A stretch of DNA of 56,045 nucleotides from a virus, in IMG/VR virus record IMGVR_UViG_3300045988_061467, positions 1-56,045 of that record; one strand, given 5' to 3'. This document shows, piece after piece, positions 22,948 through 52,845 of the stretch. The notes beneath the pieces were generated by a model. The model searched no databases and was not told the origin of the DNA. It saw only the letters and a program-made list of their open reading frames with translations. The first letter of the stretch is position 1, and every line of letters begins with the position of its first letter. The translations under genes and the position numbers were made by a program.

Positions 22948-23004
22948 GTAGTTTACCTCCTATAATGTATTATACACTATTTTGACTAATATCGTTTACC
23001 TTAT

Positions 23005-25983: not shown

Positions 25984-26388
25984 ATGGAAAAAGTTCTTAA
26001 TTTCGCATACGTCACTCCTAAGTGGACAGACAACAAAAAAGGATATAAGTTTCACTTCGAAAGTATTCGAGTAAAGGAAACTGAAAAACAATATAAAGTA
26101 ATTAAAACTAACCCTAACTTATTTTTGGACCTAGGTTCAGTTATTAAAAAAGATGAATTAGATCACAGAGCAGTATCTAAAGCTTGCGGTTTTTCTGAAG
26201 TAGGAATAACTATTGTAGATGGAAGTCTAATAGATGCTAAAATGGCTCTCGTTACTAAAATCGGTGAACGTATCTCTTATATAAAAGGAAGAATGCAAAG
26301 CCGAGCAGACAAAGGAAGAGGTGAAAGCAGTCACTTAACAAAACAGATGGAAGATTGCGCTAATCAACTCATAGCTATTTATGCTTAA
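25984..26388 (+). CDS. Hypothetical protein (134 aa)
   Basis: First ORF after the family-1 promoter, with RBS AGAGG. No recognisable motif. Confidence 0.6.
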   Translation: MEKVLNFAYVTPKWTDNKKGYKFHFESIRVKETEKQYKVIKTNPNLFLDLGSVIKKDELDHRAVSKACGFSEVGITIVDGSLIDAKMALVTKIGERISYIKGRMQSRADKGRGESSHLTKQMEDCANQLIAIYA

Positions 26389-26402
26389 CGAGGAAGTGTC
26401 CA

Positions 26403-26723
26403 ATGAAACTTTATCACGCCACTAACTTTGAAAATTTAAGTGATATCCTAGACGAGGGCTTGAAGCCTTCGTTTGGGGTTATCTATTTTGCTGAGAGTTA
26501 TGAAAAAGCTCTTGCATTTTTAGCCTTACGCTCTATTGATGTAGTTGTGTTCGAAGTTGAAGTTGATATTGAACAATGTCAGGAAAGTTTCGACCATAGC
26601 GGATCAATGTTTTGTCGACTATTTAATTTTGACAATTGTCGCGCCTGGACTTACGATAAGCCTATTGCTCCTGAAGATATTGACTTCAGTAAAGCTCGAG
26701 TCTATAATAGGAAAGGAGAATAA
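26403..26723 (+). CDS. Hypothetical protein (106 aa) with a possible minimal ADP-ribosyltransferase-fold N-terminal motif
   Basis: MKLYHATNFENLSDILDEGLKPSFGVIYFAESYEKALAF resembles the LYHG[ST]...GL / FG-x-FY-x-[ST] opening motifs of H-Y-E-type ART-fold families. This is motif-level only. Confidence 0.25.
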   Translation: MKLYHATNFENLSDILDEGLKPSFGVIYFAESYEKALAFLALRSIDVVVFEVEVDIEQCQESFDHSGSMFCRLFNFDNCRAWTYDKPIAPEDIDFSKARVYNRKGE

Positions 26724-27094
26724 TGGGAAATAAATGGAAGGTCATTCATTTTCAGAATTCCTGTATTAAACAAGTAGACGATGAAAAAAGACGTCTACTT
26801 TTTGAGGTGCCCGGAACTCCTTATCGTCTAAGAGTTTGGGTGAAAATGAGCCTAGTTAAAATTGAAACACGCGCAGGAAATGGCTATTATAAGGAACTAA
26901 TATATCAAGACGATTTTGTATTTTATGGTAAGGAGTTAATAGATGGTTATTTAATTGACGCCACCATAACTGGCAAATCTTTGGCGGAATATTGTGAGCC
27001 TATGAATAGACATATTCTCGAAACTATTGCATCGCGAGAAGCAGCTGAATTAAACAGAGCTAAAAAGCTAGACCAACAGAAATGGAGATATTAG
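26723..27094 (+). CDS. Hypothetical protein (123 aa)
   Basis: Its ATG overlaps the upstream stop (TAATG), suggesting a translationally coupled cassette. Confidence 0.55.
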   Translation: MGNKWKVIHFQNSCIKQVDDEKRRLLFEVPGTPYRLRVWVKMSLVKIETRAGNGYYKELIYQDDFVFYGKELIDGYLIDATITGKSLAEYCEPMNRHILETIASREAAELNRAKKLDQQKWRY

Positions 27095-27095
27095 T

Positions 27096-27848
27096 ATGGC
27101 AAAAAATAAAAAACGGAAAAAAGTCAATGTTAAAAGGAAAATGCTTATCCCTACAAATATCTCGAAAAAGGTAAATGTAAAAGCAATTGCTTATCGAAAA
27201 GTCACAGTTAAATGGCTTCCTAATACAGATGAAATCCAAGTATATTTCGACCTTTATATGAATAAAAATAGGCTCACTATGTTAGGCACTATTGACCCGG
27301 ACAGGAGCTATTTTGAAGGAATTAGAATTGTTTGTAGAAACCCGCAGCCTTGGATGACTGTTAAGGAGCTCCAGGTTGCGCGTGTAGACGCCCCAGGTTT
27401 TTTTGCAGTTCTTAAAGCCTATTGTCATACAGTCGGAGACGTACTAGACAACGGCGCAGAGCCTGATGAAATTGTTCCTGGTATTATGTATAAAGGTGGT
27501 GAACTATTTAAGGACAGTGAAATTGTCAGCCTTTTCAAGTACGATGTCAAAGAGCCTTACGAGTTTCCAAAAGATACTCCTATAACTGCTGGCAACTTCA
27601 AGGATTTTATTATGTCTAGCCAACATACTAGAGCACTTGTTTTAAGGTGTGCTAATATAGGTGAGTTTTCTACGAACTGGAGGAAGTGGCAAGCATCTAT
27701 CCAGGTTCTGCTCGACTATGCCAAGGCGGATGACTTTACAGTAGATGAAACTGTTTGGGACTTTTCACCTGGCTCTAAAGCTGGAAAGATAGCACGTCGA
27801 AAGGGTTATGAAGCAATTCAACAATCCCTTGAGCTTATAAATCAATAA
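27096..27848 (+). CDS. Hypothetical protein (250 aa) with a strongly basic N-terminus
   Basis: The ORF begins MAKNKKRKKVNVKRK and is followed by a terminator. Confidence 0.55.
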   Translation: MAKNKKRKKVNVKRKMLIPTNISKKVNVKAIAYRKVTVKWLPNTDEIQVYFDLYMNKNRLTMLGTIDPDRSYFEGIRIVCRNPQPWMTVKELQVARVDAPGFFAVLKAYCHTVGDVLDNGAEPDEIVPGIMYKGGELFKDSEIVSLFKYDVKEPYEFPKDTPITAGNFKDFIMSSQHTRALVLRCANIGEFSTNWRKWQASIQVLLDYAKADDFTVDETVWDFSPGSKAGKIARRKGYEAIQQSLELINQ

Positions 27849-27875
27849 CGTAGCTTCGGCTCGTTATTTTTTTTT
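27847..27875 (+). terminator. Rho-independent terminator after the 250-aa gene
   Basis: aacgtagc-ttcg-gctcgtt (7 bp with one bulge) followed by a run of T (attttttttt). Confidence 0.55.
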
Positions 27876-27905
27876 AAAAAAATTAAAAATTTTTACACAA
27901 AATGC

Positions 27906-27934
27906 TTTACTTTATTCACTCATTATAGTATAAT
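27906..27934 (+). promoter_or_regulatory. Family-1 promoter, plus-strand copy 2
   Basis: TTTACT-17 nt-TATAAT. The flanks are near-identical to the copy at 25921. Confidence 0.65.
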
Positions 27935-27967
27935 CATACTATAAATAAAACAAAAGAGGTAAACAAA

Positions 27968-28147
27968 ATGGCAAAAGTTAAAGATTTACAAGTAAGGATG
28001 AAAGTTGTAAACGAAAAAGGTACTGAATTTGAAGTAACTTCTCGTCAAGGTCGTAAGTGGGTAGGACTAGAACGTCTTACAGATGGACGCATTTGGTTCT
28101 ACGATAACGAAACACTTCTAGTTGAAAAGGTTGAGGTAGTAAAATGA
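27968..28147 (+). CDS. Small hypothetical protein (59 aa), absent from the ORF track because it is under 60 aa
   Basis: The ATG at 27968 is preceded by the same aagaggtaaacaaaATG RBS context as the gene at 25984. It translates to MAKVKDLQVRMKVVNEKGTEFEVTSRQGRKWVGLERLTDGRIWFYDNETLLVEKVEVVK. Its stop overlaps the next ATG (ATGA). Confidence 0.6.
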   Translation: MAKVKDLQVRMKVVNEKGTEFEVTSRQGRKWVGLERLTDGRIWFYDNETLLVEKVEVVK

Positions 28148-28350
28148 ACGAAGATCGTTTTAACATACAACCTGAGGACATACTTAACTTCATCGGTATC
28201 CTTAATACAAAGGATCCAGACTTTCATGACTGCTTAGTAGCCCGGCTAGTAAGCTCCTACACTAAAAAGGAACTTGCGTATAAAGGATTATCCTTCGACG
28301 ATTTTATTGCTGAGATTCAAAGTCAATCACTCGCTTATCTAGGAAAGTAA
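28144..28350 (+). CDS. Hypothetical protein (68 aa)
   Basis: ATGA-coupled to the 59-aa ORF and followed by the bidirectional terminator. Confidence 0.55.
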   Translation: MNEDRFNIQPEDILNFIGILNTKDPDFHDCLVARLVSSYTKKELAYKGLSFDDFIAEIQSQSLAYLGK

Positions 28351-30206: not shown

Positions 30207-31466
30207 TTAAGGGCGAGGGCGACGAGAAGGCGCTGGAGTCTTTCGAGTAGGTTTTGCAACTGCTTTAGGTTTTTCTGTGCGCTTGATGTATTCAGCTTCA
30301 GTGATAGGTTCCCAAGTTTCTTCATCATATTCTTCAGGCAAGCGTTCGCCTTTTGCAAGTTTATGAACTTCACCATCTAGTTCGTAGAAGAAGTCTTCTT
30401 CTAAAATAGGGCACATTGCATCCATGTATTCTTCTTCATCTACAAGAATGTCGCTGTCATCGTCTGGTTCATTGACATCTTTCTTGTAGTAAACATCAGC
30501 CACTTCACTGTAGAAGTAGTAAACATCTCGAACGTGTCCAGCAGGTGCTACAACATTGTTATCTTCTACTTCTTCGACTTCTGGCTCCTCTTTAGGCTCC
30601 TCTACCTTTTCAGCTTTTTTAGGCATACGGATTTTAGAAGATTTCTTAGGCTCCTCTTTTGGCTCCTCTACCGTTTCCTCTTTTGGAGCAGGTTTTCGAC
30701 GTCGAGTGATTCCAGCTTTTGGAGTTTCTTCTGCTTCTTCAACAGTTTCAACTTCTTCTTCCTTAGGCGCAGTCTTTTTGCGTGAAGCCTTTTTAGGCTC
30801 TTCTTTGACAACTTCTTCAACTACTTCCTCTTCGACCTCAGCTTCTTGCTCAATTGAACCTTGAGAGTATTCGAAGTTTTCATTTTCGACTACATAAGTT
30901 GCAGCCATGTCTGCGCGATGAATTAGGAAAGCAAGTGGATTAGTTTCGAAAGCTGCTCCGCATCCATTCAAATTTGCATAAGGACTAATATCATAGGCTC
31001 CCATATGCCAGAAAATTGCTTGAGCTTCAACTGGAGTGAGTTGAATGAAACGTTGAAGAAGATAGATAGACTTTGCTCCATGTCCCATTGTAAGTTGTTC
31101 AGGATCGTATTCATATGCTAAATAACTTTCCCACTGACCGTCAGCGTCCTTATGCCATTTTTCAGTTTCGCGATATTGACCTACTTTGCAAAGGTCGTGG
31201 AATAGTGCTACGATTGCAACTGTTTCCATTGAATAAATGTCTTCCCAGCCTTTGCCAACCATAGTATCCATTTCGAAAAGTAGTTGATTGAACACGTTTA
31301 ATGAATGTTCAACAAGTCCACCTTCATAGCTTCCATGGTATCGAGTGCTTGCTGGACTCGAGAAGAAATTAGTTTCATTTTCGAGCCAATCCATAAGGTT
31401 ATCAATTCCGTCACGAGTGATTGTTTCTGTAACTGCTTTCTTGAAGCGTTTTTTAAAGTCTGTCAT
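30207..31466 (-). CDS. HD-domain phosphohydrolase with a long E/K/P-rich linker and a C-terminal domain (419 aa)
   Basis: The N-terminal domain has LVEHSLNV...ALFHDLCK (an H...HD signature). Residues ~205-300 are low-complexity E/K/P/V. Confidence 0.6.
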   Translation of the reverse strand: MTDFKKRFKKAVTETITRDGIDNLMDWLENETNFFSSPASTRYHGSYEGGLVEHSLNVFNQLLFEMDTMVGKGWEDIYSMETVAIVALFHDLCKVGQYRETEKWHKDADGQWESYLAYEYDPEQLTMGHGAKSIYLLQRFIQLTPVEAQAIFWHMGAYDISPYANLNGCGAAFETNPLAFLIHRADMAATYVVENENFEYSQGSIEQEAEVEEEVVEEVVKEEPKKASRKKTAPKEEEVETVEEAEETPKAGITRRRKPAPKEETVEEPKEEPKKSSKIRMPKKAEKVEEPKEEPEVEEVEDNNVVAPAGHVRDVYYFYSEVADVYYKKDVNEPDDDSDILVDEEEYMDAMCPILEEDFFYELDGEVHKLAKGERLPEEYDEETWEPITEAEYIKRTEKPKAVAKPTRKTPAPSRRPRP

Positions 31467-31632: not shown

Positions 31633-31662
31633 AATATACACAGATCTCAGCCTATTTGTTAA
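31633..31662 (-). promoter_or_regulatory. Family-2 promoter (TTAACA-18 nt-TATATT, TGTG immediately before the -10)
   Basis: Minus strand reads TTAACAaataggctgagatctgtgTATATT, upstream of the 47-aa ORF and HD gene. Confidence 0.5.
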
Positions 31663-32552
31663 GTAAGTGAAAAAATTTTATACAAAGAAATGTAGACCGC
31701 TGAACTTTCTGTGTATCGACCATTCTTGATACCTTCAATAGCTTGACCTAAAATAGACATTCCTTCGAAAGCTGAGTCCAATTCGTATTGAAAGTTATAG
31801 ACAATCTTATTGATTAAGAACTGCTTAATTCCTAAATTAGATTCTTTGGGCTCTTCTGCTCCTAATACAAGACAGGCGTTATTGAAGTTTTGATAAAGTA
31901 AGGTAAGCAACCCAATAGGACTTTCACCTTTTGCCAAAAGTTCAGTGACTTTTATAATTGCCTGCTCCGGCCTATATTCAAGTACATCATCGACTAGGCT
32001 GAAAATATCAATTTCTGTCTTGTGCTTGACAATAGATTCAACTACTGATGCGTCGACCTTTTTTAATCGAGACAGCTTGTCGAGTTCATTATCAATTCTA
32101 GAATAGTCATTTAGACAGAACTGGATAACCATGTCAATCATGTTGCTATCAATAGTTGAGTATTTAGACACAAAGTGCCTTTTCAACTGGGCGTCAGTCA
32201 TTTTCTCAAATTCAACACAATTATCAGGAAAGGCTTTTAGCAACTTGCTTCGCTTGTCAATTTTAGTAACCATTAAAACAAGTGTCCCATATCTAACATC
32301 CGGAAGCCTTTTCCATCTAGACTCATTTGCTAAAAAGTCTTTATCGTCTCGAACAGCGAATATTCGACGATTAGAAACAAGCCCTCTTTGAGTAAGGGTT
32401 TTCCAGACTGTCGAAACTGAAGACTCTCGAACTACATTTCCCATTTGATTGAGATATACATTCATAAGTCCAATTTCTTCGCCGTATAAGATATAGAACG
32501 GTTTCAAATTATTAGTTCGAATATCTTTTTGAAATGATACTAAATCACTCAA
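31659..32552 (-). CDS. holA: Clamp-loader subunit, DNA polymerase III delta-like (HolA-like)
   Basis: The N-terminal LKPFYILYGEEIGLMNVYL matches the delta-subunit opening motif. It is adjacent to the delta-prime-like and gamma/tau-like genes. Confidence 0.55.
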   Translation of the reverse strand: MSDLVSFQKDIRTNNLKPFYILYGEEIGLMNVYLNQMGNVVRESSVSTVWKTLTQRGLVSNRRIFAVRDDKDFLANESRWKRLPDVRYGTLVLMVTKIDKRSKLLKAFPDNCVEFEKMTDAQLKRHFVSKYSTIDSNMIDMVIQFCLNDYSRIDNELDKLSRLKKVDASVVESIVKHKTEIDIFSLVDDVLEYRPEQAIIKVTELLAKGESPIGLLTLLYQNFNNACLVLGAEEPKESNLGIKQFLINKIVYNFQYELDSAFEGMSILGQAIEGIKNGRYTESSAVYISLYKIFSLT

Positions 32553-33384
32553 CTTGTTTGACCCTCCTGATAAATTCGTTTACACTAACACGCGCATTTG
32601 AGCCTTTTTTAGATATCTTTCTCAAACACCTTGACGCCTCTCTTACTAAAAGGTCATGAGCTTCAAGTTCGTCGAAAGACATTTCTAAATAATGTTTACG
32701 GATAACAACTGTCGACCAATTTAGCAAACAGTTGAGGAATAGTTTAGAATCAATTTTTCCTTCATCAGTCTCCTTAAATTTAAGCCAATTAGTAACCTTT
32801 AATGAGTTGCTAGCACTTGCCTCCCATATTAAGTCATAGAATGTTGTAACCTTTTCAAATAGCTCTTCTGCGCCATATTCTAATATATCCTCAAGCATTT
32901 GAAGATTGCTGGCAAGATTGCAATAGTCTACAATCGCCCGGTCGTCAATTCCTGAAGTATCTACTTTCTTGTAGGACTTAACAAACTGCATTTTCTCTTC
33001 AGTAGTATAGGGTAGCATGGTTAGAACTTTTGCTCGACTTGCAAGCGTTGGTAAAGCATTATTGATACTATCAACAGTCATGGCTATATGACAGTTTAGA
33101 GGCGGCTCTTCCGCTATCTTTAAAAGCGAGTTAAGAGCGGACATCGACAAGCTATTGCCGTCTATCACGTAGATTCTCGCCTTGAAAATAGTTTGAGCGT
33201 CCTGTATAATGTTCCGAATGTCATCTACACTTGTTCCCACTACAATAGAATCAGCGTCAAATTTTGAAGAAATATAACGGATTAAGGTTTTTCTTCCCGA
33301 ACCTACTTCGCCTTCGACGATTATAAATTTTGGAAGCTGTTTCCATTTTGAGATAGTAGATTTAACAAGCTCCTGTCCAATCAT
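32545..33384 (-). CDS. holB: Clamp-loader subunit, DNA polymerase III delta-prime-like (HolB-like)
   Basis: P-loop-like GEVGSGRKT together with ALNSLLKIAEEPPLNCHIAM and LPTLASRAKV (the LLKtLEEP / SRc motifs of the delta-prime/gamma family). Confidence 0.6.
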   Translation of the reverse strand: MIGQELVKSTISKWKQLPKFIIVEGEVGSGRKTLIRYISSKFDADSIVVGTSVDDIRNIIQDAQTIFKARIYVIDGNSLSMSALNSLLKIAEEPPLNCHIAMTVDSINNALPTLASRAKVLTMLPYTTEEKMQFVKSYKKVDTSGIDDRAIVDYCNLASNLQMLEDILEYGAEELFEKVTTFYDLIWEASASNSLKVTNWLKFKETDEGKIDSKLFLNCLLNWSTVVIRKHYLEMSFDELEAHDLLVREASRCLRKISKKGSNARVSVNEFIRRVKQVE

Positions 33385-33385
33385 T

Positions 33386-34411
33386 TTACTCCTCCTTGCT
33401 CATCAAAAGAAGTTTGGTTTCAATTATCGGTTTAGCATTCGGTTCCCATTTAACAACTCCAGCAAGTTCATTCATTTCTTCAAGCATCCATAATAGAGTA
33501 GGATATTGAAAAGCCTCACAAAATTGTTCTAGCTTACTTTCAAAATGAGCAGGAAGTTGAGTGATTGAAATATCTCGAACTAGCCAATACTTACAAACCT
33601 CTAAAAGGAAATCAGTGAAGTTTCGAGTCACTAATTTCAAGTCTTTTCCTGAGTAATGGAAATCATTTACAATTTCCAAACACTTTGAGCCGTCATAGTT
33701 GGCAATAGCTTCAACAAGTGAAGCGAATGTTTCATAGTCAGGAACGCCTAGTGCATTAGAAACGGCTTCCATATCAACGTGATGACTATAATCAAGGACT
33801 TTTTCAAGCCTTGTGATACTGTCACGCATTCCGCCATTTGCAAGTTTACCAATGAAAGAAAGGGCGTCACGCTCATAACTATAACCAGCTCCTTCTTCAT
33901 TTTCGCTTTTAATGATAAATTCAAGCTGACTGACAATGTCGTCATTATCAATTCGAGTGAAGTCAAACCTTTGAACTCGACTGAGGATTGTGTCAGGAAT
34001 CTTTTGAGGGTCAGTAGTGCATAAAATGAACACGGTTCCGGAAGAAGGTTCTTCTAATGTTTTCAGCAGCGCATTAAACGCTCCAGTTGAAAGCATATGA
34101 ACTTCGTCAATGATGTAAACTTTGAACTCACTATCCATAGCCTTGTATCTAGAATCTTCAATAATGTTTCGAACATTCTCTACCCCATTATTAGAGGCAG
34201 CATCAATTTCAATAGGAGAGCCTAGTCCTTTATTCACATCTTTTGCAAAGATTCGAGCAGTAGTTGTTTTCCCTGTTCCAGCTCCTCCACAGAATAGATA
34301 GCCATGTTTTATAGCGCCATTTTGCAATTGATTTAAAAGAATTTCTTTCACATATTCTTGAGCTACCACTTCCTCAAAAGTGCGAGGGCGGTATTTGGAT
34401 GCTAAATTCAT
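33386..34411 (-). CDS. dnaX: Clamp-loader ATPase, DNA polymerase III gamma/tau-like (DnaX-like, 341 aa, no tau extension)
   Basis: YRPRTFEEVVAQEYVKEILLNQL, GGAGTGKTT, IIDEVHMLS, NALLKTLEEP and ILSRVQRF form the complete AAA+ clamp-loader motif set. Confidence 0.8.
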   Translation of the reverse strand: MNLASKYRPRTFEEVVAQEYVKEILLNQLQNGAIKHGYLFCGGAGTGKTTTARIFAKDVNKGLGSPIEIDAASNNGVENVRNIIEDSRYKAMDSEFKVYIIDEVHMLSTGAFNALLKTLEEPSSGTVFILCTTDPQKIPDTILSRVQRFDFTRIDNDDIVSQLEFIIKSENEEGAGYSYERDALSFIGKLANGGMRDSITRLEKVLDYSHHVDMEAVSNALGVPDYETFASLVEAIANYDGSKCLEIVNDFHYSGKDLKLVTRNFTDFLLEVCKYWLVRDISITQLPAHFESKLEQFCEAFQYPTLLWMLEEMNELAGVVKWEPNAKPIIETKLLLMSKEE

Positions 34412-34767
34412 TTTCTTAAAAGCCTTTCTGCGACCCTTACAGCAAACTGACAGTCGTATGGAAGTCCCATTCCAGTATTTCCATCAAACTGTTTAAACTC
34501 GTTATAGAGAACAGTTTGTCGAAACTCATCAGGGTGTGAAACTATAAGAGAATATAGTTCGTGGCTCCATTTATCATACTGTCCGTCTGCTATAATTAAG
34601 TCATTAAAATAGTAATAGATACAACTATGAACAAGCACTTGACGCTCTCTGCGGTTCATAAGTTCAACCACTTGCTCATCGATTTTAGGTTTAGGTTTAG
34701 GAACTGTCCTCGCTTTTCGCTTTACAACTGGAGGACCAGGTTTCGAACCAAATAGAGATTTTTGCAT
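34408..34767 (-). CDS. 119-aa protein: N-terminal clamp-binding-like peptide, basic linker, and a LigA domain-Ia-like module
   Basis: MQKSLFGSKP shares QKxLFGxKP with the polymerase N-terminus. HSCIYYYFNDLIIADGQYDKWSHELYSLIVSHPDEF aligns by eye with the NAD-ligase Ia motif YY-x-D-x-I-x-D-x-YD-x4-EL-x2-L-x3-HP. Confidence 0.35.
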   Translation of the reverse strand: MQKSLFGSKPGPPVVKRKARTVPKPKPKIDEQVVELMNRRERQVLVHSCIYYYFNDLIIADGQYDKWSHELYSLIVSHPDEFRQTVLYNEFKQFDGNTGMGLPYDCQFAVRVAERLLRK

Positions 34768-35927
34768 TAACCTTCTTCTCGAGTGATAATTTCGTGAACC
34801 GCAGTCATCACCATGTCGAATAAGTAGTCATCTTCTTTAAAGCGTCGAACTAGATTTGCCTTACCTTGGAACTTCAATGGTTCTTCGTCTTCATCTGTCA
34901 TGATTTCTCCAGTTTCAAGGTCTACGACACTGAACCATGCTCCTGCCTTTTGAATGACTCCAAATTCGACAGCGACATCTACAAGGTCATTTTCAATTTG
35001 AATTCCATCATGATAGGAAAGCGTATAGGAAACTAATTTTCTGTCCGGCTTGAATGCTTTAGTCTTTTCAACGAATGATTCCACTACATTCCCGGCAGGG
35101 TTTCGAGCAGTACGGGTCAATGATGCACCGTTCTCGTCAAGGTAGTCACCTTTTCTAAATTTTAGGCGAACCGCGCAAGCATGCTTCCACATCTTTCCGC
35201 CTGGAGTTGAATAGGCATTGTACTGACTATTCATATCTTCTCGAATTTGATTGATGCCTAGGAATATTGCATTGTAGCGAGTAAGAAGTGGAGTCACTTT
35301 TCGACTAAATTCTGTTAAAGGCGCTGAGATTCCTGCATAAGCCTTCTTAGTCAACTCTTCATCTATAAGGTTTTGACTGACCATGTAAGGCAAGGAGTCT
35401 AGAACTACTAGGCCAACTTCTCCTGTTTCAAAAATGTCTAAAACGTATTGAAGTATTTCTTCAGCGCTATTCATTTCCGGGCGAACTATCCAAATATTGT
35501 CAACATCGACTCCAATCTTTTTAGCCCACTCAGTGTCTAATGTATTCTCAAGGTCGAGATATACAATTTTAAGTGGCTCCTGAAGGCTGTCTAGTTGCAT
35601 TTCAAGTTCCTTGATAGCAGTCTTGCTGGCTTTAGATGCACGCGCATTTTCTAGCTTTTCCTTGAGTTCTTCAGTCTTCTGTTCCCATTCCTGCTCAAAT
35701 ACCATTTGCGCATTCTTAACAATGTCGAGAGCTGAAGTAGTCTTCCCACTTGACTCAGGACCAAAGAATTCAATTACCCTTTTTCGAGGAAGCCCGCCAT
35801 AGGTTTGATAATTCATAGAAGGCGCAGAAAAAGGAATTCTTGGAAGCGCTTCACGTTCAAGTCCTTGAACTGCTACAAGAGCTTTCGAATCCTTATTCCA
35901 GTCCTTCATCAACTGTTCTAGTTTCAT
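34767..35927 (-). CDS. recA: RecA-like recombinase
   Basis: GGLPRKRVIEFFGPESSGKTT (Walker A) and a RecA core. There is a ~40-aa coiled-coil-like insertion after Walker A (EQEWEQKTEELKEKLENARASKASKTAIKELEMQLDSLQ). Confidence 0.75.
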   Translation of the reverse strand: MKLEQLMKDWNKDSKALVAVQGLEREALPRIPFSAPSMNYQTYGGLPRKRVIEFFGPESSGKTTSALDIVKNAQMVFEQEWEQKTEELKEKLENARASKASKTAIKELEMQLDSLQEPLKIVYLDLENTLDTEWAKKIGVDVDNIWIVRPEMNSAEEILQYVLDIFETGEVGLVVLDSLPYMVSQNLIDEELTKKAYAGISAPLTEFSRKVTPLLTRYNAIFLGINQIREDMNSQYNAYSTPGGKMWKHACAVRLKFRKGDYLDENGASLTRTARNPAGNVVESFVEKTKAFKPDRKLVSYTLSYHDGIQIENDLVDVAVEFGVIQKAGAWFSVVDLETGEIMTDEDEEPLKFQGKANLVRRFKEDDYLFDMVMTAVHEIITREEG

Positions 35928-36418
35928 TAGAAATCACCTGTACTTCCATGACCGCCACGAGCCACATTTCCTAAGGACTCTACGAAATTAAACTTAATAG
36001 CAGGTTGCTTTTCCTGAATTCTAAATTGAGCAATTCTTTGGTCGTAGAAAATATCTGCGTCGCGAGTAGCATACCAAACTGAGAACCATTCATCAGTGTC
36101 GCCTTTGTAACCTTCGTCAATCACTCCGCTAGACACGAAGATAAGACCTGTCTTTTTAAATAGACTTGAACGAGGATGGAGAATAGCTTCATGTCCTTCA
36201 GGTAGTTCTAAAGCAAATCCGTGTGCAATTTTAATGCACTCACCGGCTGCCACTGAATACACTTGAGACTTTTGAAGAACAGTTCGACATTTCGATACTT
36301 GTTCCTTGCTTGCGTCAATGGCAGTGATTGAACTAATACGCACATCAACCCAGTCACCTGTAAATTTCAGTCGGTCAAGTTTAGGGTCAATCATTTTCAC
36401 GTTTACGTCTTTTGACAT
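35927..36418 (-). CDS. dut: dUTPase (trimeric type)
   Basis: Motifs PRSS, GVIDEGYKG, RIAQF and the C-terminal RGGHGSTG. Confidence 0.8.
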   Translation of the reverse strand: MSKDVNVKMIDPKLDRLKFTGDWVDVRISSITAIDASKEQVSKCRTVLQKSQVYSVAAGECIKIAHGFALELPEGHEAILHPRSSLFKKTGLIFVSSGVIDEGYKGDTDEWFSVWYATRDADIFYDQRIAQFRIQEKQPAIKFNFVESLGNVARGGHGSTGDF

Positions 36419-36956
36419 TTAATACTCCTTTTAAATTATTAGATTGAGTTTCTAACTCTGCTAGTTGCCATGTTTGAATACGTTTTAAAGATGCTAATAC
36501 TTTGTCAGCTTGCTCAAGTTTTAATTGAACTTTTTTGTAGGCTCGCTTGTAAGCATTTTCGATGACTTCTTCATTCATAACAAGTTTTCGAGTCTCTGCT
36601 TGTTTGTCAGGAATTGTTTTCCCAGCAGCTAGAATATATAGATTATCGTATTTTTCTTTCCTAATAGCCGAACTTGAATCCATTTGTATTCCCACCATTT
36701 CCGCCCTGTCTGAGGCGAAATAAAGCAGAGTGGGAAGATACCCTATATAGTAGTTCAAGTCTTCTATAATGACAGGATTTTGGCTTACAACATCTTGAAT
36801 TTCAAGCATTGCTTCATCTAATGGACCGCAAGCTGCTTCAACAATTTCGTCGACTACTTTATTGATAATGAAGCCGTACGAATCTGCAACCTCTTGCGCC
36901 TCTCGTATTTCATCTTCCCGTATATCGATTTGAGGGAGCTTTGGTTTATTAGACAT
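36387..36956 (-). CDS. Hypothetical protein (189 aa from the ATG at 36956)
   Basis: AAGGAGGAAGG lies just upstream of the ATG at 36956. The track start at 36992 is a TTG inside the upstream gene. Confidence 0.5.
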   Translation of the reverse strand: MSNKPKLPQIDIREDEIREAQEVADSYGFIINKVVDEIVEAACGPLDEAMLEIQDVVSQNPVIIEDLNYYIGYLPTLLYFASDRAEMVGIQMDSSSAIRKEKYDNLYILAAGKTIPDKQAETRKLVMNEEVIENAYKRAYKKVQLKLEQADKVLASLKRIQTWQLAELETQSNNLKGVLNVKRRKREND

Positions 36957-37437
36957 ATCCTTCCTCCTTAAATTGATATTCAATAGCTTCAATTAGAGAA
37001 TAGATATCGAACGTACAGCGAGTGCGCTTACTGTAGAATTTCACAGGATATCCAATTCCAGGGAGCTTATCAGGATTTATACTTTTAGCGCCTGATTGAC
37101 GCAGGTTCTCAAGCTGTTGAATAGGATACCACATTAGCAATTTCTTTTCATAGAAGAATACTAATAGCCCTCCTACTCCGTAGTCACTTGAATCTGCTTC
37201 TAATAAACCTTGCCATTGGTGTTCACTTACATTGCTAAAAGGGAACGAAGCTTCCTTAGTTGCTTTTAGCTCTAGATAAATTGTTCCGAATTTACAAGCT
37301 AGGATGAAATCACAAGGATTTTGAATGCCTTTGAATCCGTTTGTCGTATCATAAAGCCTAGTCAGGTGAGTTCCTTCGGGACTGGACTTCCAACTAGAAA
37401 AGAAATCTTCTTCAAACATTTTTCCAGTATAGCTCAC
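36949..37437 (-). CDS. recU: RecU-like Holliday junction resolvase
   Basis: GKMFEEDF...NPCDFILACKFGTIYLELKATKEASFPFSNVSEHQWQGL parallels the RecU D-x(n)-E-x-K...SFP-x-N-x3-HQ core. Confidence 0.55.
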   Translation of the reverse strand: MSYTGKMFEEDFFSSWKSSPEGTHLTRLYDTTNGFKGIQNPCDFILACKFGTIYLELKATKEASFPFSNVSEHQWQGLLEADSSDYGVGGLLVFFYEKKLLMWYPIQQLENLRQSGAKSINPDKLPGIGYPVKFYSKRTRCTFDIYSLIEAIEYQFKEEGYV

Positions 37438-38210
37438 AGATTTCTACCTTCCTTTCTACAATACGGACAATATGCTGAAGAGCAATAGATTTTAGGACTT
37501 TCGCCTTTCTCTACATACTCTTCGCAAGTCATAATTTTTTCAAGAACTTGATTTTTCATCTCGTCTGTGATGTGAAACGTGTAGGCTTTCTTTTCGAAGT
37601 TATCTCGATTTTCATAAAGGAAAATAACATCATCGACTCCTAAACACATTCCATAGCAAGTTGCCTGCATTTTATGTTCTTCATAAGGCTCAGTATGTTT
37701 AGTGAACTTGAACATAGTCTCAGTCTTAATCTCTAAAATATAGAGCTTACCTTTATATCGAACTAGCCCGTCACATAAGAATGAAAGTTGAAGAAGTTCG
37801 TTCTTACACTTTGTCTCATAATCATTCTTTTTGAACCGTTCGTCGACGATAGTTCCCTCAACTGGATTTTCTTTCAGGAACTCTGCTACATTTAACCATT
37901 CAAAGTCCTCATCAATTTCAGCCATTTTAACCATGTATTCTTGAAGAACTTCGTGCCTAAATGTTCCAGCTTCACCCATTGCAATTAGATTAGAATCTGC
38001 GTTATCTATAATAGACTTGCCGATTCTTTCGAAATACATTTTTCGAATACAGCCACCAACCCCGCTGGGCTTGTAATATGTCGAAGGATTATATTCTGGC
38101 TGAGTTCGTTCAATGACCTGTGTCAGTGAATTGACAAAAGATGAAGCAGGACCTTCACTATTTCCTGCTCTAACCATCTTTGCAATTCTAGTTAAATTTG
38201 ACTTAGCCAT
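37434..38210 (-). CDS. Cas4/RecB-family PD-(D/E)XK exonuclease with an Fe-S cysteine set
   Basis: One N-terminal Cys (GVGGCIRKMYF), a nuclease core (DGLVRYKGKLYILEIKT) and a C-terminal C-x5-C-x2-C (CSSAYCPYC). Confidence 0.6.
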   Translation of the reverse strand: MAKSNLTRIAKMVRAGNSEGPASSFVNSLTQVIERTQPEYNPSTYYKPSGVGGCIRKMYFERIGKSIIDNADSNLIAMGEAGTFRHEVLQEYMVKMAEIDEDFEWLNVAEFLKENPVEGTIVDERFKKNDYETKCKNELLQLSFLCDGLVRYKGKLYILEIKTETMFKFTKHTEPYEEHKMQATCYGMCLGVDDVIFLYENRDNFEKKAYTFHITDEMKNQVLEKIMTCEEYVEKGESPKIYCSSAYCPYCRKEGRNL

Positions 38211-39283
38211 TATTCTTCCGGCTCTTGAAGTGCTAAGAAGTAAACGACACCATTCGATGAGATCTTAATTGCATTTTCGCTTCCATAAGAGACAGTGAAG
38301 TTTTCTTCGGTGACCGTTGATACAATTTCCTTCAAGAGTAAGCTGTTAAGGTGGCAAGTGAATTCTTTTTTCGAAACCTTTTTGCCTGCAGATGCGTACA
38401 TAATGTCTTCATAACTGCTTGTCGAAGTTTTAATTCGAAGTCGATCTTTTAAGAACAAGAATTCAACAGTCCCCTTATCAAAGGCTGAAGTGAATAGGAC
38501 AAGACGATCTAATACACTCAAGATCTCTGCAGTAGGAACCGCCGCATCGTCAATGAATTCGAGTGAATCCAGCTGTGAAACGTCTTCATAATCTTCCATA
38601 CCTTCCATCAATTTTCCGTAAATTTCAACCGACGCTGACGAAATGTAGACAGTATTGCTATCAATTTGCCAGAAGTACATTTTTTCATCAGGAATACTAG
38701 CAAGAATGCTCATTAAGTTATAAGGAACAAGCATTTCTAATTGTTCTTCTTCGATAGGGTTGATACATACGCGAATAATGTCTGTAGTAATTGCTTTTCC
38801 GCCCTTTAACAGGAAGCCGGTATAAATTCCATCTGCTCCTGATTTAGATACCGCAGAATCGTTAATATTGGCGATCCCGTAGAACAGCGAACTTTTCAAT
38901 GTCAATGCGTCCTCTTCTTTGACATCTTCTAATAGGTGGTCAAAGGTAGGATACTCTTCGTCTTCTGTAACGATGTCAATATTGTATTCCCCATTCCCAA
39001 TAACTTTTAGCGAAGATTCTTCAGGAACTAATGTGATAGTCGCTGCAGTTGTCTTTTCTACAAGTTTTCCAAACTGTTCTGCTTTCACAATGACGTCAAT
39101 TTCAACATCACTGTCGATAATGCATCGAAGGAAGTTTGAGCCGTCATACGCTGTGAACATAACGCATTCACCGTCACCGAAAATATGCCAATAGTTTGTG
39201 ATTTCTAGCAACTTGCTAGGCTTCAACTTATTGAGCTGAGAGACAATTTTTGAAAGTTCTTCAGTCTTGAACTTAATACTCAT
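38210..39283 (-). CDS. dnaN: Sliding clamp, DNA polymerase III beta-like (DnaN-like)
   Basis: The 357-aa length, three-domain periodicity and its context with a clamp loader support the call. Sequence similarity was judged only by eye. Confidence 0.55.
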   Translation of the reverse strand: MSIKFKTEELSKIVSQLNKLKPSKLLEITNYWHIFGDGECVMFTAYDGSNFLRCIIDSDVEIDVIVKAEQFGKLVEKTTAATITLVPEESSLKVIGNGEYNIDIVTEDEEYPTFDHLLEDVKEEDALTLKSSLFYGIANINDSAVSKSGADGIYTGFLLKGGKAITTDIIRVCINPIEEEQLEMLVPYNLMSILASIPDEKMYFWQIDSNTVYISSASVEIYGKLMEGMEDYEDVSQLDSLEFIDDAAVPTAEILSVLDRLVLFTSAFDKGTVEFLFLKDRLRIKTSTSSYEDIMYASAGKKVSKKEFTCHLNSLLLKEIVSTVTEENFTVSYGSENAIKISSNGVVYFLALQEPEE

Positions 39284-39703: not shown

Positions 39704-40639
39704 CTAAAATAGTCGACGCTGACGATTTTTAATTCCCTTGAATTCATAGTTCTCTGCCCAATCCAGCATGTATTGAACATTGAACAATGCTCGAAGTTTA
39801 TAGTCATCAACTAATTGTTCTAAACTAAAATGCGCTCCAGTTTCTTCAATAATAGACTCGATTTCAACTTGAACAGGTTTTGGCAGCCTTCGGACAGCAT
39901 CAATTCCTCCGTTCTTCTGTGATAAGTCAACTAGTCCTTTTGAAGTCATAATGTTTCCCATAGCCCCTGTCAACAGTACAGAAGTCGAGTCGGCGCTATA
40001 AAATGGGTGACGCTCTAATTGGCTAGTAACTGTCATCCCGAAAGCGTGAGTCTTGACATCTGGATTAGAACTGTTTCGAATAACTTCGAATACTCGTTCC
40101 ATCCATTTGTCTTTATGCTTTGTAGTCGAGTCATTGGCTGGAGAAATCCCGATGTAAGGAATATGCTTCCCGCCTTCGAATGTAGTCTCGAGCATCAAGT
40201 TGAGCCATTTAAAGTCTTCTCCCATATGGAAAATAGGTAAGAGCTTGTCTTTCTCAACCATTCGCTCGCGCATGTATAGATAGTTATCCCAAGAAATTTG
40301 TGGCGCCTCTAAAAGCTGTTCACGTGTCTTAGGCTGTCTAAATACACCAGGAATTTTATCGAGTTCAGCAATGCAGTCAAACATTCCTACATTATCATTG
40401 ACATATTCGATATAGGCGTCAATGTCAACTTCAGCTCCCTTGGTATGAGCAGAATATGCACTAGAGTCGACGAATAATTTTGAAGTAGTGTTTGGATTGT
40501 TTTTCTTATGTTCAATCCACCTTTTGCCAATTCCGTTTCTTTCATACAGCTGATTGAATAGGCGATTGGCTCCTCTTTCCTTCAAATAATCGTCAGTGCT
40601 AATAGCATGTCCGCCTGCGAAATATAGATTAAATCCCAT
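39704..40639 (-). CDS. dpdA: DpdA-like DNA guanine transglycosylase (TGT superfamily)
   Basis: LFVDSSAYSAHTKG, YIGISP, HAFGMT and SADSTS resemble TGT/DpdA barrel motifs. It is the last gene of the preQ1 cassette and ends in QRRLF. Confidence 0.65.
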   Translation of the reverse strand: MGFNLYFAGGHAISTDDYLKERGANRLFNQLYERNGIGKRWIEHKKNNPNTTSKLFVDSSAYSAHTKGAEVDIDAYIEYVNDNVGMFDCIAELDKIPGVFRQPKTREQLLEAPQISWDNYLYMRERMVEKDKLLPIFHMGEDFKWLNLMLETTFEGGKHIPYIGISPANDSTTKHKDKWMERVFEVIRNSSNPDVKTHAFGMTVTSQLERHPFYSADSTSVLLTGAMGNIMTSKGLVDLSQKNGGIDAVRRLPKPVQVEIESIIEETGAHFSLEQLVDDYKLRALFNVQYMLDWAENYEFKGIKNRQRRLF

Positions 40640-44499: not shown

Positions 44500-46839
44500 T
44501 TAGATTTCAATTTCTTCACCATACCATCTTTCTACTATACTAGGGTCACATTTCATTGGAAGACTAATAATGTCCTTGGCTGCTTCAATCATAACTTCTG
44601 TCAACCGTTCTGCGCCTCGTTTAGCATTCTCTTTAGGAACTTCACCTAGTAACTCGTCATGAACTGGAATCATTAAATGGAATCCTAATTCTTTTAGTTC
44701 AGGGTCATTGTGTACCTTAATCATTGCGTACTTAGTCATGTCGGCTGCTGTTCCTTGAATAACGGAGTTCAAACATTGACGCTGAGCATCAGCTATCTTG
44801 CCTCCATTATCCTTGATAAGAATTCCCTCAGCTTTTGCTTGGTCTTTAATTTCCTGCTTCTTCTTAAATCCCCAAGCCCTGTCCAGCTGGGCCCAATATT
44901 TTTCGATAATATGTTCAGGAACAGCGTCATCCATCTGTTGGTCAGCGTCGAAGTTAAATGGGTCGAAGTCTTCGTTCTTGCTGGCGTCAATATACTCGAA
45001 TTCATATTCAGGCAAGCTCATATCAGGAAGTCTTCTTCTTCGACCGGTAGCGGTTTGAACGTATCCAAATTCCTGCGCGTGCTGTTGAACGAATATGATA
45101 TAGTCTGCTACTTTAGGGAACTCGCTAAAGAAGTCTTCTATAACTTTATTCGCTTCTTTGACAGACACATTCATTTGCTCAGCGATTGAGTTAGCCCCAC
45201 GGCCATACATTAGACCTAAAAGAACTGACTTGACTGAGTTTCTTCGAAGTTTCCCTTCCTTGTTAGTTGTTCCGTCTGGATAAAACTCTAAACACTCTTC
45301 ATAAGGGACACCATAAAGTTTCGAACCGATAACTGAATATAGGTCCAGGTTTTGTTCGTAAGCGTGACGCATACTTTCATCACCACTTAATTCAGCGAGT
45401 GAACGTGGCTCTTGTTGAGAGTAGTCACTACCGATAATGTAGTGGCCTGGACTTGCTGAAAAGATTTGTCGAACTACTGCGCCTTCTCCTCTTGACGGAA
45501 TATTCTGTAAGTTAGGGCCTTCACTTGACATACGTCCAGTCTTAGCTCCGTACTGTTTGAATGTAGTGTGAATTCGATTGTCAGGTTTTGCAAGGTGCTG
45601 GTCAAGTGTTGTATAGGTAGAAACTAATTTTGCATATTTTCTATATTTCAAAAGTGCTTTTGAGATATCGTTATCAAAATGCTCGACAATACTTTCACCC
45701 GTCCCTCTAGGTTTATCCTTTTCAGGACTCTTCAATCCCATGATGTCATAAAACAGAATTGCTAATTGAGTAGGACTGGAAATGCTTACTGCTACTCTAC
45801 CTCTTGCATCCATTTCGAGTTTTTGATAGCTTTGGAAATTAGTTTGTCGAAGTTCTTCAATTTCAGGTTGCCACTCACTAACAAGCTGTTGAAATTCAGC
45901 TTCTGCTTCATTCATGCTATTAGTAAACTTCTCTCTAATCTCTTGTAGCTTGTCCTGGTCTAAATCTACTCCGTAGACTTCCATGTCAAAGAGGACTTTA
46001 ATTAGAGGCATTTCAATATTATGAAGAACCCATGAAACTTTTTCTAGGTTGTATTCTTCACATTCTTCAGTTCCCGGTGTTAGATATTGTTTTTGAAACT
46101 CATAAAGTTCGAAAGTTTGCAAAGGGTCATAAGCCGCATACATATATGCAACATCCGGAGGAATTAAACTAAAAGGAATGCCTTTGAACAAGTCATTGAA
46201 TTTAGCAACCTCTGCATTTTCTTCATTTCGAACATATTTAGAATGAAGACTTTTCAAGCTGTGAGATTCGTTTTCATTTAAAAGCATTGCGGCTAAATAA
46301 GTATCCCATTCAGGCTCATTCATCTTGACGCCAAGTCGCCAATAAATCGATTTCATATCAAATTTCGAATTGTGGTAGATAATAGGAATTCCTGAATCTA
46401 TAATTCGTTGAAGCATTTTCTTCATAAACTCAGGAGAAATTTGATTCTTAATTCGCATCTTTGTCATATTGCTAACATGATTGACAGGAGCGTAGATTCC
46501 TTTTTGACTCGGTGAGTACAAGCAGACTCCTGCTAGCTCATCGTGAATAGTATCCAGTCCGTCAGTTTCCACGTCAATAGAACCTATTCCATCTTCAATC
46601 ATTTTGTCTACATACTGCTCGAGTTTTTCTTCCTCAGTGACTAACTCAAGTCTATCAAGAACGTGTCCAAGAATTCTAGTTGAAAGAGTTCGAGCTCTAG
46701 CGACTGCATCCTTTAGAGCGTTTCCTGAAATGTAAGTAACCTCAACTGCAGGCTTCTTATTTCTTCTTTGTGCTAATAATTGGGCGTCATTCTTCTTACT
46801 TGAACGAGGCTTTGCACCAAAAAGTCCTTTCTGTGACAT
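44500..46839 (-). CDS. polA: Family A DNA polymerase (PolA-like, with a 3'-5' exonuclease domain and an N-terminal basic extension)
   Basis: Exo motif (IDVETDGL), pol motifs (DYSQQEPR, RRNSVKSVLLGLMYG, IPVHDELL). The N-terminus reads MSQKGLFGAKPRSSKK. Confidence 0.85.
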   Translation of the reverse strand: MSQKGLFGAKPRSSKKNDAQLLAQRRNKKPAVEVTYISGNALKDAVARARTLSTRILGHVLDRLELVTEEEKLEQYVDKMIEDGIGSIDVETDGLDTIHDELAGVCLYSPSQKGIYAPVNHVSNMTKMRIKNQISPEFMKKMLQRIIDSGIPIIYHNSKFDMKSIYWRLGVKMNEPEWDTYLAAMLLNENESHSLKSLHSKYVRNEENAEVAKFNDLFKGIPFSLIPPDVAYMYAAYDPLQTFELYEFQKQYLTPGTEECEEYNLEKVSWVLHNIEMPLIKVLFDMEVYGVDLDQDKLQEIREKFTNSMNEAEAEFQQLVSEWQPEIEELRQTNFQSYQKLEMDARGRVAVSISSPTQLAILFYDIMGLKSPEKDKPRGTGESIVEHFDNDISKALLKYRKYAKLVSTYTTLDQHLAKPDNRIHTTFKQYGAKTGRMSSEGPNLQNIPSRGEGAVVRQIFSASPGHYIIGSDYSQQEPRSLAELSGDESMRHAYEQNLDLYSVIGSKLYGVPYEECLEFYPDGTTNKEGKLRRNSVKSVLLGLMYGRGANSIAEQMNVSVKEANKVIEDFFSEFPKVADYIIFVQQHAQEFGYVQTATGRRRRLPDMSLPEYEFEYIDASKNEDFDPFNFDADQQMDDAVPEHIIEKYWAQLDRAWGFKKKQEIKDQAKAEGILIKDNGGKIADAQRQCLNSVIQGTAADMTKYAMIKVHNDPELKELGFHLMIPVHDELLGEVPKENAKRGAERLTEVMIEAAKDIISLPMKCDPSIVERWYGEEIEI

Positions 46840-47613: not shown

Positions 47614-47693
47614 ATCAATTCTCCTTTATAAGTTTTTAATGGTTGAAAGATTTTTGAAGTTTTTAAGGTTTCAAAGTTTGTCCTTTCATATAT

Positions 47694-47723
47694 AATATAC
47701 ACGAAATTCACGTGATTTGTAAA
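47694..47723 (-). promoter_or_regulatory. Family-2 promoter upstream of the SSB-like gene
   Basis: Minus strand reads TTTACAaatcacgtgaatttcgtgTATATT (18-nt spacer). AACCGGTT overlaps the -35 at 47722-47729. Confidence 0.55.
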
Positions 47724-47727
47724 CCGG

Positions 47728-48342: not shown

Positions 48343-48377
48343 ATTGATGTGACCTCTTTTAAAAATTTGCTAACTTT

Positions 48378-48406
48378 ATTATACGATAATAAAAGAATTT
48401 CTACAA
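48378..48406 (-). promoter_or_regulatory. Family-1-like promoter (degenerate -35) upstream of the sigma-like gene
   Basis: Minus strand reads TTGTAG-17 nt-TATAAT, sharing ttatcgTATAAT with family 1. The -35 overlaps the primase stop codon. Confidence 0.45.
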
Positions 48407-52844: not shown

Positions 52845-52845
52845 G

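Follow-up and report, generated by a model that had tools for sequence, protein, structure and literature searches.

The closest described counterparts of the locus analysed here are the clamp and clamp-loader genes of Streptococcus phage Dp-1 and of its relative MS1. The Dp-1 records in GenBank (HQ268735 / NC_015274) list Gp10 as DnaN, Gp17 as DnaX, Gp18 as 'gamma-tau' or clamp loader and Gp19 as HolA, and situate genes for a Cas4-like protein, RecU, dUTPase, RecA/UvsX and a small 'DNA ligase' between the clamp and the loader genes. Gene order is identical in MS1 (KY629621), where 'delta prime' is explicitly named. In these public annotations the protein of 119 amino acids (aa) is entered as 'DNA ligase' and DpdA as a tRNA-ribosyltransferase, and the terminal motifs that are the main subject of this work are unmentioned. 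The DNA under study is the IMG/VR virus record IMGVR_UViG_3300045988_061467 (56,045 nucleotides, hereafter the window), which encodes a bacterial-type sliding clamp, three clamp-loader subunits and a family A DNA polymerase (PolA). The new element is a possible link between these parts: sequence comparison suggests that clamp-binding-like termini are carried by PolA, by the DNA 7-deazaguanine transglycosylase DpdA and by Nlig-Ia, a solo NAD-ligase Ia domain protein, and that these termini track the presence of the clamp.

In a nucleotide search, positions 31659-39283 of the window matched Dp-1 (56.5 kb) with 91.7% identity over 94% of the region, and MS1 was retrieved as a more distant relative. 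The genes of the clamp and loader region, all on the minus strand, are the same and stand in the same order as in Dp-1 and MS1, the clamp sharing 96% identity with its Dp-1 counterpart and 54% with the one in MS1. On these comparisons the window is a Dp-1-type pneumococcal phage, an isolate or contig distinct from Dp-1 itself, and by gene content (clamp, loader and PolA, as known from the Dp-1 and MS1 annotation) it is a new member of the Dp-1 group. An earlier note on this DNA had mentioned that something similar was described for Dp-1 as a possibly novel replication system; the observation is not new, the genes being annotated in both phages, and since the Dp-1 records already carry DnaN, DnaX, HolB-like and HolA entries, that note rediscovered published annotation from the raw sequence. 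As inventory, its contribution is a further Dp-1-type phage in a group whose annotation already existed. The question of how the parts connect has now become specific, as it comes down to three short peptides and one small acidic clamp.

The clamp-binding consensus of bacteria is QL[SD]LF or QxxLF. When the whole window was translated in six frames, the pattern QK[GS]LFG was present at two places and no others, each of them the N-terminus of a protein (PolA and Nlig-Ia), and a wider scan added DpdA, whose C-terminus reads ...NRQRRLF. PolA starts with MSQKGLFGAKPRSS, where QKGLF occupies residues 3-7 (46819-46833). Nlig-Ia starts with MQKSLFGSKPGPP; its QKSLF spans residues 2-6 (34750-34764) and is followed by a basic linker, an arrangement conserved in MS1 and in metagenomic relatives. 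QRRLF makes up the last five residues of DpdA (39707-39721). The candidate docking peptides are MSQKGLFGAKPR for PolA, MQKSLFGSKPG for Nlig-Ia and KNRQRRLF for DpdA, or, in longer form, MSQKGLFGAKPRSS, MQKSLFGSKPGP and GIKNRQRRLF, respectively. Three proteins with a terminal Q..[LM]F were observed against 0.084 expected, and one of 5000 shuffles reached three. These termini suggest that PolA, Nlig-Ia and DpdA are clients of the clamp.

PolA was modelled by AlphaFold with a predicted local distance difference test (pLDDT) value of 86 overall, and its Klenow fragment match has a template modelling (TM) score of 0.85. In this model residues 1-38 (46726-46839), which are basic, have pLDDT values below 50 and are predicted to be disordered, and the folded enzyme begins at about residue 39; the anatomy of the tail suggests a tethering peptide on a flexible leash. 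An artefact of start-codon choice was considered for the N-terminal motif and ruled out by the distance to the ribosome-binding site (AAAGGGA, upstream of the start), by the start being shared with Dp-1 and MS1, and by the gene calls in the protein database, which open with the same motif. The start codon of Nlig-Ia overlaps the stop codon of RecA (TAATG).

The termini of approximately 45 gene families were compared over 65 related loci, and a terminal [LIVM]F was kept only by PolA at the N-terminus (in 20 of 23 distinct sequences), by Nlig-Ia, likewise at the N-terminus, and by DpdA at the C-terminus (in 16 of 16), the misses being traced to false upstream starts or truncated open reading frames (ORFs). 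Across about 140 related loci the three termini are kept and the flanking residues are variable, and in each of the best 120 PolA homologs in the protein database (at least 48% identity) a motif of this kind opens the protein and precedes a basic linker of variable sequence. The termini read MAQKGLFG, MAQRTLFS and ...KQNRLF in MS1, MFQNSLF and ...SQGKLF in Bacillus phage Flasso, and MALFNF and MNLFS in Clostridium phage phiCTP1. In one clade of IMG/VR contigs (L096, L102 and L111) PolA starts with M[SG]LLNIKAP, LL taking the place of LF, and DpdA ends in ...GF or ...GFNS, both termini having changed together, which may reflect co-variation with the clamp of that clade.

The nearest PolA outside the clade, that of Clostridium phage phi8074-B1 and the CS phages (39.6% identity), aligns only from residue 66. 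The module of phi8074-B1 includes SSB, PolA, Cas4, RecU, UvsX, SNF2, DnaB, Nlig-Ia and primase, and no clamp or loader was found by phmmer and the clamp profile in positions 6670-47595 of its 47.6 kb. Its PolA starts with MFYTRDNIKAHIW, without the basic tail, and its Nlig-Ia (L077, 26838-27185) begins directly at the folded domain, without an N-terminal extension. Since phi8074-B1 lacks the clamp as well as the extensions, extensions and clamp are present together or absent together. For DpdA, of which at least 516 loci occur in IMG/VR, a scan centred on this gene gave 74 loci with a complete C-terminus; 65 of them end in LF (38 of 46 distinct tails). A Dp-1-type clamp lies in the flank of 65 DpdA loci, and 62 of these end in LF; five loci without such a clamp within 10 kb do not end in LF.

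In Dp-1 DNA about 1.7% of guanines are replaced by dPreQ1, and the TGT-like gene is DpdA (PMC6884629); in the window this gene is located directly upstream of the clamp gene. An association of DpdA with clamp genes is also found in distant, unrelated phage groups. In the Queuovirinae 9g and NP1, and in RHEph04, MiCath, BcepGomr and the Edwardsiella phage ZHS, DpdA adjoins, or shares a queuosine-gene cluster with, a beta-like clamp and a polymerase, the polymerases not being recognised by Pfam. The DpdA proteins of these phages end in QDLFDE, QELF, QRLF, QGLFV or QSLW, and the polymerases start with xGLFW, GFFW or SFF, followed by a linker. Neighbourhoods of DpdA, clamp and polymerase were observed at 19803-23727 (L074), 19830-23953 (L075), 17778-22098 (L072), 19830-24180 (L073), 3824-8522 (L085) and 3977-8507 (L084), and in such neighbourhoods, those of the Dp-1-like phages included, DpdA has a Q-x(1-2)-L-[FW] tail. 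For the clamps and polymerases of the Queuovirinae, Pfam gave no match that would join them to the Dp-1 families, and the hhalign comparison of the Dp-1 clamp profile with the 9g clamp was not significant; they are therefore treated as an analogous module and not as the same family. In Cellulophaga phage phi3ST:2, DpdA has no tail and an overlapping ParB-like gene ends in NLF, and ...AKENGQ is the C-terminus of DpdA in a mycobacteriophage where no clamp lies close to the gene. The DpdA homologs of three jumbo-phage contigs (L151, L152 and L161, 150-166 kb) end in ...ARRIGL, which resembles hexapeptide clamp motifs such as QLVLGL; DnaX-like and HolB-like genes are found nearby, and no Dp-1-type clamp within 10 kb. 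A literature search retrieved no paper in which DpdA or solo Nlig-Ia is connected with a sliding clamp and none reporting the neighbourhood of DpdA, clamp and polymerase. Solo Nlig-Ia proteins have been discussed as possible NAD+ sensors, with the clamp unmentioned (PMC9503650); the gene labelled 'DNA ligase' in Dp-1 and MS1 encodes the NAD-binding Ia domain (PF22745) only.

The clamp itself was assigned by structure and by family profile. The AlphaFold monomer model (pLDDT 90.7, predicted TM score 0.86) has the three-domain beta-clamp fold, and the best 50 Foldseek matches are all bacterial beta clamps, with query-normalised TM scores of 0.74-0.83 (0.79-0.83 for the top five); the comparison with the clamps of S. 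pneumoniae, S. pyogenes and B. subtilis gave TM scores of about 0.8 at about 16% identity. A profile built from 28 sequences of the family matched Firmicutes beta clamps in PDB over the full length (E-value 6.7e-22), and the single-sequence match to PF00712 (17.7 bits) lies below the cutoff of 24.4. The family comprises 542 representatives at E <= 1e-30 in an exhaustive profile search of metagenomes, from which its size was taken, a word-indexed homolog search having given just 29 proteins. In bacterial clamps a hydrophobic pocket for peptides lies between domains II and III; its TD(S/G)HRL strand is aligned with the segment TTDIIRV of the window (residues 166-172; 38768-38788), whose T and D are near-invariant across the family. 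The protein has an isoelectric point of 4.4 and a net charge of -30, and this acidity is consistent with a predicted loader-dependent ring, as acidic charge has been associated with clamps that depend on a loader (Kazlauskas and Venclovas 2011, PMC3201878).

Three consecutive genes encode the putative loader. DnaX passes the cutoff of NCBIfam TIGR02397 (dnaX_nterm; 314.9 bits, cutoff 250), matches the E. coli gamma/tau chains in PDB (E-value 3.8e-51) and contains Walker A (GGAGTGKTT, 42-50), Walker B (YIIDEVH, 99-105), the LSRVQRF motif (143-149) and sensor 2 (GGMRDS, 193-198), with the arginine finger reading SRV instead of SRC. Being only 341 aa long and ending after collar domain III, it is of gamma length and has no tau domains; it covers the 567-position NF004046 model only to about position 358, and by length and by coverage of that model no tau domains IV-V were found. 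In bacteria these domains bind DnaB and Pol III alpha. The zinc module is deleted as well (approximately 22 residues; residues 64/66 of the query align to residues 67/90 of the E. coli chain). Without the zinc module and without domains past III, this is an unusually minimal DnaX.

The second protein exceeds the Pfam cutoff for PF13177 (DNA_pol3_delta2, 9e-11) and, by profile, is homologous to HolB, being too diverged for equivalog status. Its P-loop is degenerate (GEVGSGRKT, with one extra residue) and the Walker B acid pair is absent (YVIDGNS), and the LLKIAEEP motif and the arginine finger (ASRA) are kept; judged by these motifs, a dead ATP site together with a kept arginine finger is the delta-prime pattern. 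The top phmmer matches of this protein in PDB, to designed TIM barrels, were discarded as spurious, repeat-like local matches, and those to T4 gp44 are weak. The third protein passes the cutoffs of TIGR01128 (holA; 91 bits, cutoff 80) and of PF21694 for the C-terminal domain (29.2 bits, cutoff 27), and matches the B. subtilis delta subunit 3ZH9 in PDB (E-value 2.8e-4); FYILYGEE stands at its residues 19-26. The hydrophobic wedge by which E. coli delta opens the clamp is formed by L73 and F74 in domain I. In a MAFFT alignment of these distant sequences the beta-interacting QAMSLF of E. coli delta is aligned with TQRGLV (32376-32393) in the window and with GLF, SLF or KLF in the relatives, which is consistent with a putative wedge that would use the same clamp pocket as the clients. 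Taken together, the motifs support a division of labour among an ATPase-competent gamma-like DnaX, an ATPase-dead delta-prime with arginine finger, and delta.

PolA combines a 3'-5' exonuclease domain with a Klenow-like polymerase domain, and no 5' nuclease domain was found in it by Pfam or in the AlphaFold model. At about residues 609-690 an acidic insertion of some 80 residues separates conserved polymerase stretches; the Pfam match is split there and pLDDT falls to about 60 at residues 620-640. A hidden PolC or DnaE was considered and ruled out, since every other ORF of more than 600 aa encodes a tail, host-range or tape-measure protein. The 65 related loci mentioned above were obtained by searching viral contigs with the clamp profile. 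All loci with enough flank carry PolA, clamp, DnaX, HolB-like, HolA, RecA, Cas4-like, RecU and SSB genes, and this co-occurrence holds down to clamps that are 26-35% identical; recurring in 65 related contigs, the gene set is therefore not a chance arrangement. Isolated phages with a detectable clamp are limited to Dp-1, MS1, phiCTP1 and FA88 (both of Clostridium) and Flasso (of Bacillus), and each of them has the same module. These gene contents support Pol III-type accessories working with a Pol I-family polymerase.

What the earlier note had read in the letters is confirmed by these results. The three consecutive genes it took for DnaX, a delta-prime-like protein and delta are supported as such by profiles, PDB matches and motifs, at the positions it gave; its 357-aa beta-like clamp has the expected fold and family profile; PolA is the only polymerase, as it had said; and the DnaB, DnaG, DnaC-like loader, SSB and SNF2 helicase that it listed have matches in Pfam, NCBIfam and PHROGs. 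Its description of Pol III accessories attached to a Pol I-family enzyme stands as regards composition and co-occurrence and is favoured by the PolA motif, the physical attachment of PolA to the clamp being a prediction. The coordinates of these and of the neighbouring genes are collected in the table.

Table. Features of the clamp, loader and replication region of the window (positions in the window; basis of the assignment in the last column).
Feature	Position	Strand	Basis
Delta (HolA), 297 aa	31659-32552	-	TIGR01128, PF21694, phrog_20214 1.8e-139, PDB 3ZH9
Delta-prime-like (HolB-like), 279 aa	32545-33384	-	PF13177, HolB models below cutoff, phrog_5846 1.2e-60
DnaX, gamma-like, 341 aa	33386-34411	-	TIGR02397, PDB E. 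coli gamma/tau, AAA+ motifs
Solo Nlig-Ia protein (NAD-ligase Ia domain alone), 119 aa	34408-34767	-	PF22745 1.2e-25
Recombination/nucleotide genes between loader and clamp	34767-38210	-	PHROGs + Dp-1 annotation
RecA/UvsX-like	34767-35927	-	PHROGs + Dp-1 annotation
dUTPase	35927-36418	-	PHROGs + Dp-1 annotation
ORF without assigned function	36387-36992	-	PHROGs + Dp-1 annotation
RecU	36949-37437	-	PHROGs + Dp-1 annotation
Cas4-like exonuclease	37434-38210	-	PHROGs + Dp-1 annotation
Beta-type sliding clamp, 357 aa	38210-39283	-	AlphaFold, Foldseek, family profile, phrog_947 2.3e-52
DpdA-type DNA 7-deazaguanine transglycosylase, 311 aa	39704-40639	-	phrog_887 3.8e-66
Family A DNA polymerase PolA, 779 aa	44500-46839	-	PF00476 291.5 bits, PF01612 54.4 bits
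Rest of replication module	46885-55091	-	Pfam, NCBIfam, PHROGs
SSB	46885-47613	-	Pfam, NCBIfam, PHROGs
Sigma-like protein	47728-48342	-	Pfam, NCBIfam, PHROGs
DnaG primase	48401-49417	-	Pfam, NCBIfam, PHROGs
DnaB helicase	49414-50751	-	Pfam, NCBIfam, PHROGs
DnaC-like loader	51013-51657	-	Pfam, NCBIfam, PHROGs
SNF2 helicase	53400-55091	-	Pfam, NCBIfam, PHROGs

Other features of the region were noted in passing. Across the clade the last residue of the SSB and DnaB homologs is always aromatic (...RGRGF, ...DDEF, ...EGVEAF, ...GEELF). In phage T7, gp2.5 and gp4 have C-terminal Phe tails that contact the T7 polymerase, and by analogy the DnaB and SSB tails could provide a link between helicase and polymerase that replaces tau. 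The C-terminus of the sigma-like protein is conserved within the Dp-1/MS1 group (KLKDFL, KLDNFL, KLDGFI); it could be a candidate contact for the clamp or for RNA polymerase, or could simply be the end of region 4. An HD-domain phosphohydrolase (30207-31466) has a long C-terminal low-complexity stretch rich in E, K and P, with repeats of the EEPKK type. Within the otherwise minus-strand genome, a short plus-strand block at 25984-28350 has reversed GC and AT skew and includes, according to the Dp-1 annotation, a homolog of RNA 2'-phosphotransferase (Tpt1/KptA).

The mechanism proposed for these components is a self-contained phage processivity system for the phage's own family A polymerase. Three gamma-like DnaX subunits, one delta-prime and one delta would form a minimal pentameric loader without the tau extension, chi or psi, which would use the delta wedge to open the strongly acidic, highly diverged clamp and would then shut it on primed DNA. 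In this scheme the clamp would serve as a hub: PolA would dock through QKGLF at the tip of its flexible basic N-terminal tail of about 38 residues, and the same clamp would be ridden by DpdA, which inserts preQ1 into phage DNA, through its C-terminal QRRLF, and by the solo Nlig-Ia NAD-binding domain through its N-terminal QKSLF. Gene identities, folds, the presence and conservation of the motifs and the co-occurrence of the genes were observed, and the 3:1:1 stoichiometry, ring formation, loading and the binding of the peptides to the clamp pocket are elements that we infer. No clamp interactions are among those listed in the phage-host interactome paper. To the mechanism as a whole, in which gamma3-delta-delta-prime loads the phage clamp and the clamp tethers PolA, DpdA and Nlig-Ia, we assign a probability of about 60%. 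The broader notion of the clamp as a tool-belt that would couple DNA hypermodification to replication, with QxxLF-type termini tethering polymerase, DpdA and Nlig-Ia, is regarded as an even bet.

Several results weigh against the proposed mechanism. The clamp matches TIGR00663 over its full length at a score below the cutoff (42.2 bits against 137.65; E-value 4.7e-11), and the best NCBIfam matches of the delta-prime-like protein, all of them HolB models, are likewise below cutoff (TIGR00678, 48.8 bits against 180.6). The alignment of the binding pocket concerns a single strand (TTDIIRV against TDSHRL), the C-terminal pocket residues not being alignable. The motif is short and degenerate, and some clades have lost its Q (MSLF, MALF, MGRIGDMF) or have LL or SF instead of LF. 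Related sequences are not independent and the counts given above thus overstate the support, and the clamp-less negative control is one lineage. Finally, the clamp gene lies in an operon with recombination genes, so that its main role could be in repair or in recombination-dependent synthesis.

If the last point were decisive, the clamp and its loader would serve mainly recombination, repair and DNA modification, through RecA/UvsX, the Cas4-like protein, RecU, DpdA and Nlig-Ia, and bulk synthesis by PolA would be independent of the clamp. The clamp and loader genes are indeed interleaved with those of the Cas4-like protein, RecU, dUTPase, RecA and Nlig-Ia, PolA being located about 5 kb away with SSB, primase and helicase; moreover, two of the three motif-bearing proteins are non-polymerases, and the clamp-less phi8074-B1 replicates with a similar PolA. 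This alternative is nevertheless considered unlikely, as it is PolA that carries the best-conserved motif (in all of its 120 closest homologs), that lacks the entire N-terminal tail exactly where the clamp is absent, and that is directly followed by the clamp gene in some relatives. The terminal QxxLF peptides might also bind another hub, such as SSB, the DnaB helicase or a host protein, instead of the phage clamp. Short hydrophobic terminal peptides serve many replisome contacts, the conserved aromatic C-termini of SSB and DnaB in this clade indicate that contacts of this kind are common here, and the tie between motif and clamp pocket comes from comparing sequences. A different hub is decidedly unlikely, however, given that the motif has the form expected of beta-clamp ligands, Qxx[LM]F, and is similar to the putative wedge of delta in these phages, that it follows the clamp among the DpdA loci, and that phi8074-B1 keeps SSB and DnaB and has neither the clamp nor the motifs; in addition, unrelated polymerases encoded beside other phage clamps (9g, NP1 and BcepGomr) also begin with a GLFW-type motif.

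The usual partners of beta clamps and gamma complexes are C-family polymerases, and PolA is Klenow-like, which would fit a scheme where the phage clamp and loader recruit the host PolC or DnaE and PolA is limited to Okazaki processing or gap filling, like bacterial Pol I. Against it, the clamp is so distant from the pneumococcal one that host partners are unlikely to fit, PolA has no 5' nuclease domain, which Pol I-style primer removal requires, DnaX is devoid of the tau domains that bind Pol III alpha and DnaB, and helicase, primase and SSB are encoded by the phage itself; we hold this scheme to be very improbable. Least probable of the alternatives is that the clamp, in addition or instead, couples replication to late transcription through sigma-like proteins, as T4 gp45 does with gp33 and gp55. 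The phage has two sigma-like proteins, one of which (47728-48342) has the conserved C-terminus noted above, and late transcription in phage Mu makes use of the clamp of the host (PMC12867686). That C-terminus is unlike QxxLF and may be the plain end of region 4, and its conservation is seen only in the close Dp-1/MS1 group.

If the peptides bind the clamp as proposed, the Dp-1 group would have a family A replicase that is compact, works with a bacterial-type clamp and is encoded entirely by the phage; it could serve as a minimal model and as an orthogonal system for processive DNA synthesis. Such binding would also explain how DpdA finds phage DNA, a targeting problem not addressed in the literature examined, and account for the tie between replication and 7-deazaguanine modification in many phages, and it would place the enigmatic solo Nlig-Ia at the clamp, at nicks or primer ends. 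Were the tool-belt notion true, nascent DNA would receive its deazaguanine immediately after the fork has passed.

Compared with the bacterial Pol III accessories (beta2 and gamma3-delta-delta-prime), the window has homologous DnaX, delta-prime and delta proteins and a three-domain clamp, and it shares the restriction of ATPase motifs to DnaX, the arginine finger of delta-prime, the position of a putative wedge element and candidate client peptides of the QxxLF type. Unlike the bacterial holoenzyme, it has no C-family polymerase, tau, chi, psi or zinc module, its clamp and that of the host share only about 16% identity, and the presumed client polymerase belongs to family A and bears its motif at the N-terminus. 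In T4, the gp45 clamp and the gp44-62 loader serve the gp43 polymerase, which has a terminal peptide, and the clamp is a hub for non-polymerase clients. The likeness proposed for the window is that a phage clamp and loader would serve a phage polymerase through a terminal peptide; T4 differs in that its clamp is a PCNA-like trimer of two-domain subunits, its loader resembles RFC, and its polymerase is of family B and has the tail at the C-terminus. T7 gp5 obtains its processivity from host thioredoxin, with no clamp and no loader. With T7 the window shares a polymerase of family A, presumably replicative, and in the Dp-1 group, as in T7 gp4 and gp2.5, helicase and SSB have an aromatic last residue.

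Contacts between Pol I-type enzymes and beta clamps have been described in other systems. M. tuberculosis Pol I binds the beta clamp pocket through a canonical QLSLLDD motif (preprint 10.64898/2026.09.19.751633). This motif is internal to the Klenow fragment and restricted to Mycobacteriales, and the enzyme acts in repair and Okazaki processing, whereas in PolA of the window the motif stands at the tip of a disordered N-terminal tail, the enzyme is presumably replicative and binding is predicted. Stimulation of E. coli Pol I by beta has been reported (as cited in PMC3201878); that precedent is contested, because no interaction between the two was found in the assays of the same preprint (10.64898/2026.09.19.751633). 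The phages Ma-LMM01 and RSL1 encode PolA together with polIII-beta and a gamma homolog, and their clamp was proposed as a processivity factor for PolA (Kazlauskas and Venclovas 2011, PMC3201878). These are phages of more than 150 kb in which only the gamma homolog of the loader was detected, whereas the window represents a 56-kb siphophage with the full set of gamma-like, delta-prime-like and delta genes.

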